Part shown: positions 4,596 through 55,074 of the stretch, piece after piece | Position numbering within the stretch: position 1 is the stretch's first letter | How the letters are laid out: the number at the start of each line of letters is the position of its first letter | Source of the DNA: an uncultured Gammaproteobacteria bacterium | Lineage (GTDB): Bacteria; Patescibacteriota; Patescibacteriia; Magasanikbacterales; UBA922 | NCBI GenBank assembly: GCA_964519725.1 | Contig: CAZFKS010000004.1 | Location: 11,848-75,847 of the forward strand | Direction of reading: 5' to 3' | Length of the DNA: 64,000 nucleotides | Program-made: the position numbers and the translations under genes | Notes under the pieces: generated by a model | Database searches by the model: none | Told to the model about the DNA's origin: nothing | What the model saw: only the letters and a program-made list of their open reading frames with translations

Positions 4596-4624
4596 TTGAC
4601 TTTTTTAATGTTTAATTGTATTTT
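4596..4624 (+). promoter_or_regulatory. promoter candidate (TTGACT, 17-nt spacer, TATTTT) for high-GC transcript 1
   Basis: It shares the 'cttgactttttt' -35 context with the promoters at 4975 and 33085 (minus strand). Confidence 0.35.
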
Positions 4625-4631
4625 CTTCATT

Positions 4632-4971
4632 AATTGGGCGACGATGCCCTAGAGGGAGAGAGCCGTGTGGATGATGGTCAACGTAAGCGGCAAGGTTAAG
4701 GAAGTCTGGATCTCCGAGGAAACAAAGGAGAAGCTAACCAGGCCCATCAAAGCTGATGGTCTACACCTGATTGGTTCTAGCTCTGGCGGAGGGCGTGTTC
4801 CTCCGCACGCACCGCGCCGTTAGCGACCACGAGAGTGTCGCGGTCCCGCTAGGGATTCCACGCTGGTCGAGGCTTATCGCCTCCCAGCCTGCCCTCCAAG
4901 AGCGGCCGACTGCTCGTGGAAGGCAGTCAAATCATAAATAAAAGCCTCTGACTAAATGTCAGAGGCTTTTT
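4632..4971 (+). ncRNA. candidate structured RNA, about 340 nt and high-GC, family unknown; may instead carry a 50-aa ORF at 4671..4823
   Basis: Promoter upstream. Dense GC hairpins include gggc-gacgat-gccc, gcggagg-gcgtgtt-cctccgc and gcgac-cacgagagt-gtcgc. No ORF of 60 aa or more in any frame. It ends at the intrinsic terminator 4941-4971 (gcctctgac-taaat-gtcagaggc followed by T5). A small ORF MMVNVSGKVKEVWISEETKEK... begins at 4671 with an upstream AGGGAGAG. Confidence 0.35.
4941..4971. terminator. bidirectional intrinsic terminator
   Basis: A 9-bp GC stem with A-tract on one side and T-tract on the other. The stem sequence gcctctgac/gtcagaggc recurs elsewhere in the window. Confidence 0.6.
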
Positions 4972-4974
4972 AAC

Positions 4975-5003
4975 TTGACTTTTTTGGTTTTGGGTGATTT
5001 AAT
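4975..5003 (+). promoter_or_regulatory. promoter (TTGACT, 17-nt spacer, TTTAAT) for high-GC transcript 2
   Basis: -35 at 4975-4980 and -10 at 4998-5003. It lies immediately downstream of the terminator. Confidence 0.4.
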
Positions 5004-5007
5004 CGCG

Positions 5008-5400
5008 CCTACGCCCAGCGGACTAGCTACCCGCAAGACATGGGCGCGAGGAGATCTCCATGAGTGAAGATGGCGGCGTTAAGCCGACCAAGCCCGGGGT
5101 GATTCGTCCCGGAAACCCCCCGAAAGGGGGCGAAGACGACTCGGGACCGACCACGGTCCCGGAGACGCCGAGATCACGGCGTCGAGTGCCTCGGTCCCTA
5201 CGCACGCCGGGCAGTGACTACGTGCGCGCCCCTGGCCTGACAGAGGGCGAGCCGTAAAGGGTGACACTGTCGCCACCCCGCCAAACTGCGGGGGCAGATT
5301 CCGCTTGATTCGCTCGCAAGAGTTCGAGTCAACAACACTCTCGGCCGCAGCGGAAGCGGCCAAATCCAAAATTAAAAAAAGCCCCGTGGTGGGGCTTTTT
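5008..5400 (+). ncRNA. candidate structured RNA, about 390 nt and high-GC, family unknown; contains a possible 65-aa Pro/Gly/Arg-rich ORF at 5060..5257
   Basis: A chain of independent GC hairpins: cccccgaaaggggg, gggaccg-acca-cggtccc, gacgccg-agatca-cggcgtc, cgcacg...cgtgcg, gggtg...caccc, ggccgc-agcggaa-gcggcc. It ends at terminator 5374-5400 (gcccc-gtggt-ggggc followed by T5). The internal ORF has GAGGAG 6 nt upstream of its ATG, but the peptide is low-complexity. Confidence 0.35.
5374..5400. terminator. bidirectional intrinsic terminator, also serving radA on the minus strand
   Basis: A7 tract, then gccccgtggtggggc, then T5. Confidence 0.6.
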
Positions 5401-31815: not shown

Positions 31816-31883
31816 TCACTGTTCTGAAAATTTGGGAATGTCCCGAATTGACAGACAAGTTCTTTAAACGTGAGGTCTTACAA

Positions 31884-32420
31884 ATGGTTTCGATCCGTCG
31901 TTTCAATGTCCCTGTGTTCATGCTCGTTGACGATGGCGCCGGCACTGGCACCTACAACCACCTCCCTAACGACGTCTATGACACGATCAAGCGGTGTATG
32001 CCGATCTTTTGTGTCGACATCATCGCCATCACCTCTCACAGCAAGGTCTGCCACCTGGCCAAGCGCCGGCGCACGCCGTGCCAGGGCTGGTGGTGGTTTG
32101 GAGGTCGGCTCGGTCAGGACGAACTGCCCGAGAACGGCGCAACGCGCATTCTCGAGCGCGAGCTCGGGATCCACATTGACCCGGGGCGATTCAAGGTCGC
32201 CGGGGCGGTATTTCAGTACTTCAACGAACCGGAATGCCGGGGCACCTTCCCGGTGTTCCAGCTCAGCTTCGAGATCACCGCTGAGGAGCTCGCCGCGGTC
32301 CGTCTGGACCCGGGCGAGTACGAGGCCGACGTCGGCCTCCGAGAGTTCAGCCTGGCTGACTTGCAGACCGAGGGGGTCAACCCCCTCATCGCAGCGGTCG
32401 CCCGCGACCTGCTCTTGTAA
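31884..32420 (+). CDS. Nudix-like hydrolase, high-GC and likely horizontally acquired
   Basis: GRLGQDELPENGATRILERELGI approximates the Nudix box Gx5Ex7REUxEExGU. The preferred start is ATG 31884 (MVSIRRF, RBS GTGAGGT) rather than the TTG at 31848. About 65% GC. Confidence 0.5.
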   Translation: MVSIRRFNVPVFMLVDDGAGTGTYNHLPNDVYDTIKRCMPIFCVDIIAITSHSKVCHLAKRRRTPCQGWWWFGGRLGQDELPENGATRILERELGIHIDPGRFKVAGAVFQYFNEPECRGTFPVFQLSFEITAEELAAVRLDPGEYEADVGLREFSLADLQTEGVNPLIAAVARDLLL

Positions 32421-32469
32421 TCTCTTCACCACCCCTAATCCCGCCTCTACCAAAATCCCAACTGGTGGA

Positions 32470-32510
32470 GGCTGCAAAACCCCCTGTCTCCACCACTTTT
32501 ATTTCTAAAG
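32470..32510 (+). terminator. intrinsic terminator
   Basis: gtggaggctgcaaaaccccctgtctccac followed by ttttatttc. Confidence 0.5.
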
Positions 32511-32559
32511 TTTGGAAGTAAAAGTGGCAGGGAGTTTTGTTATTTATAAAACAAAAAAC

Positions 32560-32610
32560 AGCCATGAATGACTGTCTTTTGTTGCGCCTCTGATTCGTCA
32601 GAGGCAGCGT
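32560..32610 (-). terminator. tandem-hairpin terminator module at the 3' flank of a high-GC gene
   Basis: On the minus strand: gcctctga-cgaa-tcagaggc, then gacagtcattcatggctgtc, then T6. It is homologous to the 3' flank at 33090-33162. Confidence 0.5.
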
Positions 32611-32663
32611 CCCAGAACTCGGCGCGGCGTCATGCGGGTTCAATGGGAAGCGCCAGGACGGCG

Positions 32664-33065
32664 CTAGCGGTGGGCGAAGGAGACGATCGCCTCGGCGAGT
32701 TCGTGGGGCTTGGCGCCCCAGGACTCGCACTTCTTCTTGAAGGCTTCGTCGTCTTCAAGTTTTCTTTCGGTCTCATCACAAGTCCAGTTCTTCCTCTCGT
32801 GGCTCGGGACATCTTGTCCATTGTAGATTGAGATGAAGTTGAACTTGGGCACCTTTCCTTTTTCGAAGGTGAACACGATGACCTTACGTTCACCGTCATT
32901 TTTGCAGAATCGTGTGACATCGAGGCGCTTCGTGCCCTCGAATTTACCACCGACGCGAGCGGGTTCGTTTTCGAGTAGCTTTTTGGGGTCGATTTCGATG
33001 AAACGCACTGAATATCGCTCCCTAGGTTGCCTGTTACCAGGCGTGATTTGTGCTAAACTTAGCAT
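32664..33065 (-). CDS. hypothetical protein, high-GC
   Basis: ORF-track ORF. A more likely start is GTG near 33005 with an AGGGAG RBS, giving about 113 aa. No family recognised. Confidence 0.45.
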   Translation of the reverse strand: MLSLAQITPGNRQPRERYSVRFIEIDPKKLLENEPARVGGKFEGTKRLDVTRFCKNDGERKVIVFTFEKGKVPKFNFISIYNGQDVPSHERKNWTCDETERKLEDDEAFKKKCESWGAKPHELAEAIVSFAHR

Positions 33066-33069
33066 AAAA

Positions 33070-33100
33070 CAATAAAAAAGTCAAGGTACAAAATGAAAAA
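33070..33100 (-). promoter_or_regulatory. promoter candidate (cTTGACTTTTTT context) for gene 32664..33065
   Basis: The minus-strand sequence reads ccttgacttttttattgttttatgctaagttt. It is the same -35 module as at 4596 and 4975. Confidence 0.3.
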
Positions 33101-33162
33101 ACAGCCACCTAAGTGACTGTTTTTTCATTGGGCCCCTGACACGTCAGAGGCAGCGTCCTGGA
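33090..33162 (-). terminator. terminator module at the 3' flank of gene 33225..33773
   Basis: Shares the 16-mer gtcagaggcagcgtcc and the A-tract/acagcc...gactgt/T-tract hairpin with 32560-32610. Confidence 0.45.
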
Positions 33163-33224
33163 TCTCGGCGCCGATTGCTCGGCACCAAGCTCAGACAGGA
33201 GTGATCCGGAGAGGATCACGTTGC

Positions 33225-33773
33225 TCAGCTCTTGTGGAGCGAGCGCCGGCGGCCGACCATCTTCATGATCAGTGCCAGAGTGGGGAGGTAGACGAGACCC
33301 CCACCGGTCTCCTGGACCTGGATAAGTCCGCGCTCCTCGAACCGCGCGAGGATGACGCGGACCTCGTCCGGGTCCATCCGCTCATCGGAGATCTTGTTGT
33401 CTTCGAGGAGACGTGTCTTGCTGACTCCGATCCAGCAGAGGCGTTCGGCAGCTTCTGCGGCCGTGGTGTTGGTAGGGAGAGACTTGAAGTCCTCCCACAT
33501 GTACACCAGGAGGCGCGCTCCGAGCGCGTCCTCCACCTTGCTGTCGAGGATTGGATTACAGGCGTCGGGGCGGTCCAGCCCCCACCGGACGAGTCGAAAC
33601 TCGCCGGGGAGACAGGGTGCCCCTTCGAGGTCGAACCGGTAGAGGCCCGGTCGACCAGGGATCTCTGCGCACCTTGACATTGTGAAAATTCTCCCTGAAA
33701 CGAACATCCGGCGGGGACGCCGGAAAGAGTGGATGAAACGGCCAACGCGAGCAGTGAAGAGGCCAGTGGCCAC
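33225..33773 (-). CDS. hypothetical protein, high-GC, possible C-terminal winged-helix
   Basis: ORF-track ORF with GTG at 33773. An alternative start is ATG MSRCAEIPG near 33680 with an AGGGAG RBS. C-terminal ...VRVILARFEERGLIQVQETGGGLVYLP. Confidence 0.45.
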   Translation of the reverse strand: MATGLFTARVGRFIHSFRRPRRMFVSGRIFTMSRCAEIPGRPGLYRFDLEGAPCLPGEFRLVRWGLDRPDACNPILDSKVEDALGARLLVYMWEDFKSLPTNTTAAEAAERLCWIGVSKTRLLEDNKISDERMDPDEVRVILARFEERGLIQVQETGGGLVYLPTLALIMKMVGRRRSLHKS

Positions 33774-33799
33774 CTACAGCCTTTCGTCGTTGACGCGCC

Positions 33800-33828
33800 A
33801 GTATACACAAAAATCCCTTTTTTGTCAA
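33800..33828 (-). promoter_or_regulatory. consensus sigma70 promoter (TTGACA, 17-nt spacer, TATACT) on the minus strand
   Basis: The RC of 33823-33828 is TTGACA and the RC of 33800-33805 is TATACT. Confidence 0.5.
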
Positions 33829-33919
33829 GAGGATAACTTGATAAAATCCCTTAAATTAGCCAAAAAAATTAAAAAACCACGGCTATTAACCGGGTTTTGT
33901 CGACGATTTCCGTCATTTG

Positions 33920-33991
33920 TAGCGCCAAGGGGAATTGAACCCCTGTTCTCAGGTTGAAAACCTGATGTCCTAACCATTAGACGATGGCGCC
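33920..33991 (-). tRNA. tRNA-Glu (anticodon TTC)
   Basis: Hand-folded. Acceptor GGCGCCA/TGGCGCT, D-loop AATGGTTA, anticodon stem TCAGG/CCTGA, loop TTTTCAA, T-loop TTCAATT. No CCA encoded. Confidence 0.75.
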
Positions 33992-53982: not shown

Positions 53983-54056
53983 GCGCGCCTAGCTCAGTTG
54001 GTTAGAGCATCTCGTTTACACCGAGAGGGTCGGGGGTTCGAATCCCTCGGCGCGCA
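53983..54056 (+). tRNA. tRNA-Val (anticodon TAC)
   Basis: Hand-folded. Acceptor GCGCGCC/GGCGCGC, anticodon loop TTTACAC, T-loop TTCGAAT. No CCA. Confidence 0.75.
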
Positions 54057-54066
54057 CCCTTTTTAT

Positions 54067-54139
54067 GCTGCTGTAGCTCAGTTGGTAGAGCGCGTCCATG
54101 GTAAGGACGAGGTCACCAGTTCAATCCTGGTCAGTAGCT
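54067..54139 (+). tRNA. tRNA-Thr (anticodon GGT), the integration target of the downstream islet
   Basis: Hand-folded. Acceptor GCTGCTG/CAGTAGC with one G-U pair, anticodon stem CGTCC/GGACG, loop ATGGTAA, T-loop TTCAATC. Confidence 0.75.
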
Positions 54140-54144
54140 CTAGT
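54106..54144 (+). repeat. attL-like 39-bp direct repeat (3' half of tRNA-Thr(GGT) plus 5 nt)
   Basis: gacgaggtcaccagttcaatcctggtcagtagctctagt is identical to 54927..54965. Confidence 0.85.
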
Positions 54145-54217
54145 TGGCGCCCGAGAGGGTGTTTTTTATTTTAATAAAAAACCAGAGAGTAAGTTTTGGT
54201 TGTTTTGTGAAATATCC

Positions 54218-54246
54218 TTGACAAAGATCCATTTTTGCTTTAGAAT
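54218..54246 (+). promoter_or_regulatory. consensus sigma70 promoter (TTGACA, 17-nt spacer, TAGAAT)
   Basis: -35 at 54218-54223 and -10 at 54241-54246. An AGGAGG RBS at 54343-54348 sits 8 nt before GTG 54357. Confidence 0.5.
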
Positions 54247-54356
54247 CCATTGTTAATTTGTCTATGGTAACAGGTAGGTCTCTGGCCTTTCTATTACCCT
54301 CGGCAATCATAAGTCTGCGCCTTGGGGGCTGAAAAGCTGCAGCAGGAGGAACTCCC

Positions 54357-54686
54357 GTGATCAACTGTCTGGTGACTTCCAAGGTTTCGCTGACCGATGA
54401 CATGCGGTACACCCTGTACCGCACCGCGTTCGAGATGTACATGAACAAGGTCGCGGAGCGCAAGGTGCGCACGCCGGGCTTCAGGGCCACGATCAAGACG
54501 GATGGCGAGCATGGGGTCATGGGTACGATCGCCGGTATCGTGTTCTCGGCCACGGTCGACACCGACCGCGGCGAAGGACTCGTGACCTACATCGTCCGGG
54601 GGCGCGATCTGTGCCAGCCCGAAGACGGTGTCTGGATCCCACTGCCCCGCGACTTCGCGCCCGTCGCCGACTACAACGTGCAGTGA
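54357..54686 (+). CDS. hypothetical protein (109 aa), high-GC, cargo of the tRNA-Thr islet
   Basis: GTG start with a perfect SD. About 65% GC. No recognisable family (MINCLVTSKVSLTDDMRYTLYRTAFEMYMNKVAERK...). Confidence 0.5.
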   Translation: MINCLVTSKVSLTDDMRYTLYRTAFEMYMNKVAERKVRTPGFRATIKTDGEHGVMGTIAGIVFSATVDTDRGEGLVTYIVRGRDLCQPEDGVWIPLPRDFAPVADYNVQ

Positions 54687-54772
54687 CCCCTCGAGGGACG
54701 GGGTCACCTCTTCCAGTGTGTCACCGCAAGGCACTGGTGGGAGTCCAAGGTTGTTCAACTTGCGGTCCCATC

Positions 54773-54800
54773 AAAAACAGCTTTGCCAAAGGCTGTTTTT
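54773..54800 (+). terminator. intrinsic terminator of the islet gene
   Basis: aaaacagctttgccaaaggctgttttt. It has the same A-tract/acagc...gctgt/T-tract style as the terminators at 32560 and 33093. Confidence 0.55.
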
Positions 54801-54926
54801 GTTTTAATAAAGTGAAATTTACTCATTTCCATATAGATGGAAATAGAGAATAAACCAAGTTTTATTAAAAACAAGGTTGTTGCAGGTTCTGCCATTCAGG
54901 GTTTTTAACTGAGTAAAAAGTAGAAA

Positions 54927-54965
54927 GACGAGGTCACCAGTTCAATCCTGGTCAGTAGCTCTAGT
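54927..54965 (+). repeat. attR-like 39-bp direct repeat (partial tRNA-Thr 3' end)
   Basis: Identical to 54106..54144. It is followed by the hairpin aaaccgcc-atct-ggtggttt + T7, the likely original tRNA terminator. Confidence 0.85.
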
Positions 54966-55017
54966 AAACCGCCATCTGGTGGTTTTTTTGTTTATATAAA
55001 ATTTTAACTTATCCACC

Positions 55018-55046
55018 GAAAGTATTTTGACACCAATACCCTAGGG
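55018..55046 (+). promoter_or_regulatory. sigma70 promoter (TTGACA, 17-nt spacer, TATACT) with embedded CsoR-type operator palindrome ATACCCTAGGGGGGTAT (55027-55043)
   Basis: The GC-rich inverted repeat between -35 and -10 matches the general form of CsoR operators (TACCC...GGGTA). It sits upstream of the csoR-copA-copZ operon. Confidence 0.55.
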
Positions 55047-55074
55047 GGGTATACTCGGAATATAACAAATTTTT

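Follow-up and report, generated by a model that had tools for sequence, protein, structure and literature searches.

Directly 3' of the tRNA-Thr(GGT) gene in a 64,000-nucleotide stretch of DNA from an uncultured Patescibacterium (contig CAZFKS010000004.1; hereafter the window), two perfect copies of the tRNA end enclose an islet of 0.8 kb that carries one gene, for a 109-aa protein, and no integrase. It is best described as a very small integrase-less, tRNA-flanked islet, or cis-mobilizable element (CIME), and its more unusual features are the persistent GC richness of the gene family and the conserved RNA structures of the untranslated regions (UTRs). The explanation favoured here, at a probability judged to be about even, is a CIME-like insertion without an integrase that formed by recombination inside the tRNA core. 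The features of the locus are:

53983-54058, upstream of tRNA-Thr(GGT): tRNA-Val(TAC), called by ARAGORN and Rfam
54067-54140, forward strand: intact tRNA-Thr(GGT), the left (attL-like) end, called by ARAGORN and Rfam (tRNA, 63.9 bits)
54106-54144, forward strand: direct repeat copy 1, the last 34 nt of tRNA-Thr(GGT) plus CTAGT, from a repeat search
54146-54171, forward strand: short terminator after the intact tRNA, GCGCCC-GAGA-GGGTG and a T run (hairpin 54146-54163)
54218-54246, forward strand: sigma-70-type promoter, TTGACA-17-TAGAAT, 11/12 consensus positions
54253-54356, forward strand: conserved structured 5' leader, from the inferred transcription start
54344-54349, forward strand: Shine-Dalgarno sequence AGGAGG, 7 nt ahead of the GTG start
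54357-54686, forward strand: open reading frame (ORF) for the 109-aa protein, GTG start
54713-54771, forward strand: highly conserved 3' UTR element with RNA structure (CCAGTGTGTCACCGCAAGGCACTGGTGGG...CTTGCGGTCCCATC); after a short hairpin comes a long stem with a variable hairpin inside it
54772-54805, forward strand: intrinsic terminator of the cassette, AAAAACAGCTTT-GCCA-AAGGCTGTTTTT (hairpin 54772-54801)
54806-54926, forward strand: AT-rich tail of ~120 nt with the inverted repeat TTCCAT-ATAG-ATGGAA (6-4-6) at 54827-54842
54927-54965, forward strand: direct repeat copy 2, the displaced tRNA 3' fragment (attR-like), from a repeat search
54966-54992, forward strand: native-type tRNA-Thr terminator right after copy 2, AAACCGCCA-TCTG-GTGGTTT and a T run (hairpin 54966-54985)
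55027-55055, after the native-type terminator: csoR promoter

The original prediction, made from the DNA letters alone, had described 34 nt of the tRNA-Thr end plus 5 nt as recurring 821 bp downstream, and a repeat search of the window found this repeat twice, identical at 39/39 nt and with a spacing of 821 nt. On the left it begins with the second base of the anticodon stem's 3' strand, and on the right it extends 5 nt beyond the end of tRNA-Thr. By our own estimate, the chance of a random 39-mer repeat in 64 kb is ~1e-14. Beyond the exact 39 nt the identity between the copies falls abruptly to ~56%, indicating a recombination joint rather than gradual divergence. The tRNA-Thr(GGT) gene is contiguous and uninterrupted according to ARAGORN and Rfam, and no tRNA-like sequence was found upstream of copy 2 by ARAGORN, Rfam or a shuffle-tested comparison with tRNA 5' halves. 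At the level of sequence this geometry, in which the intact tRNA stands to the left and the 3' fragment has been displaced to the right, matches a tRNA-targeted insertion.

A remnant of a tandem tRNA array, which had been named in advance as a case that would speak against insertion, was rejected: the sister loci hold neither a second tRNA-Thr nor a duplicated tRNA fragment, and the tail preceding copy 2 carries no relic of a tRNA 5' half. No significant similarity links the AT-rich tail with tRNA 5' halves or with flanks in relatives. When it was compared with the 5' half of tRNA-Thr(GGT), 806/1000 shuffles scored as well, which is not significant, and a weak gapped resemblance to tRNA-Thr(TGT), equalled by 4/300 shuffles before correction for multiple testing, is unconvincing.

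Between the two copies lies a complete transcription unit, here called the cassette, comprising promoter, leader, ribosome binding site, ORF, 3' UTR and terminator. The predicted promoter, AGGAGG, 109-aa ORF, hairpin terminators and AT-rich tail with its inverted repeat were each located as claimed; other frames within the islet give only short or overlapping ORFs, and no terminal inverted repeats of the islet were reported by the repeat search. The cassette promoter is homologous to that of one relative (L005), and DNA homology across six loci starts near the transcription start and stops at the terminator. No recombinase was seen by eye among window ORFs of at least 170 aa, nor among 15 window proteins scanned with Pfam; the claim that the islet lacks a recombinase is borne out for the islet and for what was scanned of the 64-kb window.

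The surroundings of tRNA-Thr were then compared among relatives. Locus L001, whose tRNA-Thr(GGT) sequence equals that of the window, has the order fpg, 258-aa gene, tRNA-Val, tRNA-Thr, terminator, cassette, 265-aa gene and ABC-F. In L002 and L003, tRNA-Thr and its terminator are followed by one to three genes (248-aa gene, APH, SDR), the cassette and a sigma-70 gene; in L007 a tRNA 3' end is followed by a 356-aa gene and the cassette, and in L006 the cassette is convergent with fpg. No second copy of the tRNA end was found in these five loci (L001, L002, L003, L006 and L007). On the right, the window backbone csoR-copA-dsbD-HMA-ABC-F is common to the L138/L139 lineage at ~71-75% nucleotide identity. 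L138 and L140 have an SDR gene and then a sigma gene, with the cassette absent, and in L141, which belongs to the sister lineage, the 3' part of the tRNA and its terminator are followed by a sigma gene. The interval from tRNA-Thr to csoR measures 0.13 kb in L136, 0.93 kb in the window, ~4.2 kb in L141 and ~7 kb in L003 and L139 together, which are contigs of one metagenome-assembled genome (MAG). The tRNA-Thr(GGT)-csoR interval is a plasticity hotspot directly 3' of tRNA-Thr, and the window locus marks it as such; the different gene sets in it (L141; L002; L003 with L139; L138 with L140) were counted in favour of a tRNA-linked insertion hotspot.

Several smaller observations concern these loci. 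L002 and L003 have a block of SDR (with more genes in L003) plus the cassette that L141 lacks, and the edges of this indel (L141:1-130 against L002:60-180 and L002:1360-1445) coincide with 13-nt terminator tails, TGTTTTTTTGTTG. The cassette terminator tail resembles the tRNA-Thr terminator tail of its own genome at 20/23 positions in the window, and at 13/13 for L002 against L141. A target-site duplication was rejected as a reading of this likeness, which is unreliable given that tails of the form T-run-[A/G]-TTT are generic among the terminators of this genome. In L007 the cassette is flanked by direct repeats (L007:1236-1340 and L007:1960-2016), which were dismissed as att sites; they look like copies of an intergenic element of the repetitive extragenic palindrome (REP) type (tcctaacctc...caccaaccggctccgcgaaaaaca, containing an inverted repeat). 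Both L007 and L008 stop 185 nt past the ORF, something that a break in the assembly caused by the repeats could explain.

The terminators carry part of the argument for insertion. The sequence after copy 2 reads GTAAAC-hairpin-TTTTTTTGTTTATAT, and a terminator of the same type stands directly after tRNA-Thr in L001, L002 and L003; this native-type terminator after copy 2 was counted for the insertion reading. So was contig L136, which derives from the same sample as L004 and L005 and in which the core is joined to the native terminator and csoR. L136 runs from tRNA-Thr positions 8-74 through CTAGT and the native terminator into csoR and copA, mismatching the window at 2 of 738 nt (99.7% identity), and its CsoR is identical to that of the window. 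In the same contig (470-545) the tRNA opens with seven bases, GCCCTCG, that are unable to pair with CAGTAGC, no tRNA is called by ARAGORN, tRNA-Val is absent, and the upstream fpg is, by eye, only about half identical to that of the window. L136 is a hybrid in which the fpg of a different species is joined through tRNA-Thr to a window-identical csoR-copA; it is probably an assembly chimera within the conserved tRNA core, the other possibility being a real recombination joint between species. Since a low-k join could yield its sequence from a filled genome, L136 is suggestive only. The one-copy arrangement with a native terminator, predicted for an empty site, was therefore seen, albeit in a contig that is probably chimeric. 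A metagenome scan for empty sites with a tRNA pattern returned only unrelated phyla, the T-arm being widely conserved, with no close locus and none carrying the family, and exact-protein look-ups of the window ORF and Fpg recovered no contig crossing the tRNA-Thr junction. A true empty site, if present, would join the tRNA 5' half to AAACCGCC with a window-type tRNA-Val upstream, and an excised circle (attP) would read ...GTAGAAA-[39 nt]-TGGCGCCC and signify present-day mobility.

Under the favoured explanation, a piece of DNA with its own tRNA 3' end, short terminator and one-gene cassette would have recombined inside the 39-bp core, either site-specifically through an integrase acting in trans or by a Campbell-type single crossover with a circular fragment that came from a related strain. 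This would have left an intact tRNA and pushed the original tRNA 3' fragment, with its native terminator, to the right, in front of the csoR-copA copper operon. Lacking a recombinase, the unit would now count as a CIME-type islet without an integrase, whether it began as a mini-element or is what is left of a larger island, and any mobility today is putative. The fragment is perfect yet non-functional, while unconstrained sites are saturated relative to L001 (fpg pS, the proportion of synonymous differences, 0.79), which points to a recent event.

Several results weigh against this explanation. Searches of IMG/VR, a phage collection and JGI metagenomes were negative, and neither an integrase nor an attP-like circle junction nor a donor whose cassette is nearly identical turned up. 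There is no clean empty site, as L136, with its broken acceptor stem and different fpg, would look the same whether it came from a filled or an empty strain. The repeat begins inside the anticodon stem, whereas the canonical crossover position is in the anticodon loop or T-loop. The cassette is resident near tRNA-Thr or fpg in relatives that have no repeat at all (the five loci named above), and L001 is collinear with the window from copy 1 up to the cassette, which leaves room for another part having come in. Site-specific integration at the tRNA 3' end, as originally predicted, accordingly keeps the repeat geometry, the native terminator after copy 2 and the hotspot on its side, and lacks a clean empty site and a cassette foreign to the relatives. 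A phage or virus origin was rejected: IMG/VR was negative both in a peptide scan and in DNA scans for the repeat and the 3' element, and tblastn against phages was negative too, the 14 matches to a 17-mer in the DNA scans being chance matches in unrelated coding sequence. A JGI metagenome scan for the 109-aa protein also gave no match.

The residence of the cassette in relatives opens a second account, the main rival, in which the cassette is ancestral beside tRNA-Thr, as in L001, and the fragment either came along with the block on the right (fragment, terminator, csoR-copA-dsbD) or arose beside it, through homology-facilitated illegitimate recombination or a local rearrangement of resident parts. 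This is considered unlikely, without being far-fetched. The 39-nt identity would then merely mirror tRNA conservation, and the tRNA 3' half and the following CTAGT are indeed conserved in relatives. L001 has tRNA-Thr, terminator and cassette in the same order and, though without the csoR block, the same ABC-F gene on the right; copy 1 is followed by a terminator resembling those that stand after tRNA-Thr in L001 and L002 (CACCC..GGGTG and a T run); the left edge of the repeat is no canonical integrase crossover site; and L136, if real, would have a foreign tRNA 5' end attached to the csoR block. However, csoR-copA-dsbD-HMA-ABC-F has diverged from L138/L139 about as far as the left flank has diverged, which makes this block look ancestral and not recent. 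Moreover, the newest DNA in a tRNA-targeted integration adjoins the intact tRNA, which here is the cassette, and the native-type terminator stands on the fragment side. The cassette may be the incoming DNA or a resident of a rearranged locus.

Composition does not decide this question. The ORF has a GC content of 0.63 (its region 62-69% GC) and a GC content at third codon positions (GC3) of 0.86, compared with GC3 of 0.39-0.45 for the host genes fpg and csoR and a window GC content of 0.44. In 7/7 relative loci tested, the family gene exceeds its neighbours in GC3 (0.56-0.84 against 0.25-0.54), and the excess holds for distant members set among housekeeping genes (L010 and L013); high GC is therefore a family trait. 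Between the window and L001, where fpg is saturated at synonymous sites, the cassette ORF has a pS of 0.37, its GC3 stays near 0.85, and its strong/weak (S/W) changes are balanced. As high GC lasts through substantial divergence, composition alone cannot date the arrival of the gene. The foreign composition claimed earlier therefore gives no evidence of recent import, and the cargo is no random foreign gene but a long-standing resident of the tRNA-Thr/fpg neighbourhood in relatives.

The arrangement could also be an assembly artefact, two strain or species paths having been stitched at a shared tRNA core, so that the 821-bp arrangement would exist in no single genome. The window appears to be metagenome-assembled, with an identical CsoR recorded on a 76-kb NCBI contig, tRNA cores are common across phyla, L136 shows assemblers joining within this very tRNA, and the exact window ORF is absent from the gene collection. 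Against this, the fragment has no tRNA 5' half before it, so the junction of tail and partial tRNA must exist in a real molecule; two junctions would have to be chimeric simultaneously; an overlap of 39 nt is shorter than typical final k-mers; and both flanks are similarly diverged from relatives. An artefact is for these reasons regarded as very improbable.

The 109-aa ORF is a genuine protein-coding gene under purifying selection. Four public homologues of 109-110 aa share 75-87% identity with its product, one of them from a Candidatus Magasanikbacteria MAG, which points to a Patescibacterium as host, and a fifth was located in genome contigs (L003). Pairwise dN/dS (the ratio of nonsynonymous to synonymous rates) is 0.16-0.37, with pS 0.32-0.50 against a nonsynonymous proportion (pN) of 0.08-0.17; changes are concentrated at third codon positions, and ORF length is constant at 109-110 codons across six loci. 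That the GC-rich stretch is instead a structured non-coding RNA gene with a fortuitous 109-codon frame, as its coincidence with the transcribed region, the better-than-shuffled folding of the islet transcript (z = -3.9), the conserved UTR elements and the presence in the window of other GC-rich units without a long ORF might suggest, is hardly credible and was ruled out by the codon-position substitution pattern and family conservation, together with the constant ORF length, the dN/dS values, the 300 profile matches with conserved residues described below, a confident AlphaFold2 core and the lack of an Rfam match.

A profile search of 1.8 billion representative proteins returned 300 matches at E < 1e-3, a family size counted as clusters at 50% identity, and nearly all of the 150 matches listed are 95-145 aa long. 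The gene belongs to a widespread, unannotated Patescibacteria family of ~110 aa. Residues shared by the family are C4, L20, A24, G56, G60, F63, A65, G72, V80, D84 and W93. Distant members (e.g. P0006-P0150, alignment A4) keep the cysteine at position 4, and most have a variable tail ending in asparagine; the window subfamily ends in Val-Gln, in contrast to the usual asparagine outside it. The predicted fold is a strand and a helix followed by a four-strand meander, with a confident AlphaFold2 core. The 109-aa product has no significant match in Pfam, NCBIfam, PHROG or PADLOC profiles, PDB sequences or PDB folds, and the earlier description of it as a protein without an assignable function stands, the profile and structure searches that had been suggested having given no annotated match. 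The label 'capsid protein' that JGI attaches to one distant member is unsupported by profile, PDB sequence and fold searches. The cargo may outweigh the islet in importance; it represents an unannotated small-protein family of 300 clusters.

Both UTRs of the cassette are structured, and the 5' leader and 3' UTR motifs are each single-copy in the 64-kb window. The leader contains a hairpin at 54297-54327 with the conserved loop AATCATAAGTCTGC (elsewhere written ATCAYAAGTCTGC) and a second at 54327-54338 (GGCT-GAAA-AGCT), the latter with covariation in relatives (T-A, A-T, C-G); in alignments of relatives, 3/9 predicted leader pairs show compensatory changes. The 3' UTR element hardly varies among L001-L004 and persists in L006 and L007, where identity to the window protein is only 41-43%. 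It has no Rfam match, and within this subfamily it is better conserved than the protein itself. GC richness thus goes together here with a 3' UTR RNA conserved beyond the protein, an unusual combination, and the family gene stays much more GC-rich than every host genome examined, even at substantial synonymous divergence.

Among known systems, the islet comes closest to a CIME as defined in PMC5704250. At sequence level it shares the direct repeats of a tRNA 3' end as bounds, retained attL and attR, the lack of integrase and transfer genes, and a small cargo. It differs in that no related integrative and conjugative element (ICE), integrative and mobilizable element (IME) or integrase sharing its target is known here, the IMG/VR and phage searches being negative and none being present in the window. 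At 0.8 kb it is also far smaller than described CIMEs, its host is a Patescibacterium, its cargo is a lineage-resident gene and not accessory cargo, and its mobility is only putative. Islands of the Islander type (PMC4383910) are tyrosine-integrase islands whose ends are marked by a regenerated tRNA and a displaced fragment. The islet shares with these a regenerated target gene, a displaced 3' fragment and a locus that varies among relatives. In contrast to them, it lacks the integrase gene that the Islander approach requires, its repeat starts in the anticodon stem and not at the canonical loop crossover, and its size is about ten-fold under that of typical islands.

Other comparisons were less close. 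Like integron gene cassettes, the islet carries a single gene, and a conserved structured element follows closely on the 3' side of its ORF; in addition, GC-rich one-gene units are arrayed by a fixed site (one at tRNA-Thr, two in tandem at tRNA-Glu); here, though, each unit has its own promoter and terminator, and the 3' elements vary between units. No attC-type imperfect palindrome was seen by eye in the 3' UTR structure, and no intI or attI was seen, intI having been looked for in the window. Unlike insertion sequences (IS) and miniature inverted-repeat transposable elements (MITEs), the islet has no terminal inverted repeats, and its flanking repeat is a 39-nt direct copy of a tRNA end. Group I introns occur in Patescibacteria tRNA genes (PMC13011429), and they share with the islet a GC-rich structured RNA with an ORF, an association with tRNA and the same phylum. 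They differ from it in that the tRNA-Thr is uninterrupted, the unit follows the tRNA and has its own promoter and terminator, and the cassette lies outside the tRNA in relatives; no Rfam match to a group I intron was obtained at E <= 1. Mobile DNA in Patescibacteria (candidate phyla radiation) is poorly known, and for that phylum the locus would give a clear, minimal case of insertion targeted to a tRNA with no integrase in residence.

Similar GC-rich units occur elsewhere in the window. Three one-gene units, each with a sigma-70-like promoter and a terminator, occupy 31848-33800, 3' of tRNA-Glu(TTC):

33919-33991, reverse strand: tRNA-Glu(TTC)
31848-32420, forward strand: NUDIX gene, GC3 0.80
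32664-33065, reverse strand: 133-aa ORF, in a less GC-rich region
33225-33773, reverse strand: 182-aa ORF, GC3 0.76

The two reverse-strand units share a 49-nt 3' UTR repeat (32577-32625 and 33123-33171, 82% identical), and no tRNA-Glu fragment repeat was found near the units at 31848-33800. A terminator of the AAAAACAG...GGCTGTTTTT type ends the 109-aa cassette and other GC-rich units, with 5 matches in the window compared with 0.6 expected. These placements suggest, rather than demonstrate, a class of GC-rich cassettes gathering next to tRNA 3' ends. A bolder proposal, which is thought improbable, is that the 109-aa cassette and the tRNA-Glu units belong to an undescribed class of tiny self-contained Patescibacteria cassettes (own promoter, conserved structured UTR, GGCTGTTTTT-type terminator) that would relocate, without a recombinase of their own, between sites beside tRNA 3' ends and terminators, and would stay GC-rich and unlike the host over long evolutionary times through selection on RNA or through an unseen GC-rich reservoir.

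On the right of the islet, the csoR promoter (55027-55055) overlaps a GC-rich palindrome, ATACCCTAGGGGGGTAT, which looks like, and is presumably, a CsoR operator. At 4620-4970 and 5000-5400 lie two adjacent GC-rich units (~58-65% GC) with TTGACT-type promoters and strong terminators; they contain no ORF longer than 96 aa and have no Rfam match at E <= 0.1, and they may be unidentified or highly divergent structured RNAs. A distant host carries another strongly GC-rich gene (L010:13438-15006; 522 aa, GC3 0.80 against ~0.44 in its neighbours, no Pfam match recorded), and GC-rich outlier genes may be common in such genomes. A further compositional outlier in the window, a 148-aa ORF without a Pfam match at 1325-1771 (GC3 0.76), lies ~0.6 kb upstream of tRNA-Arg (2397-2471).

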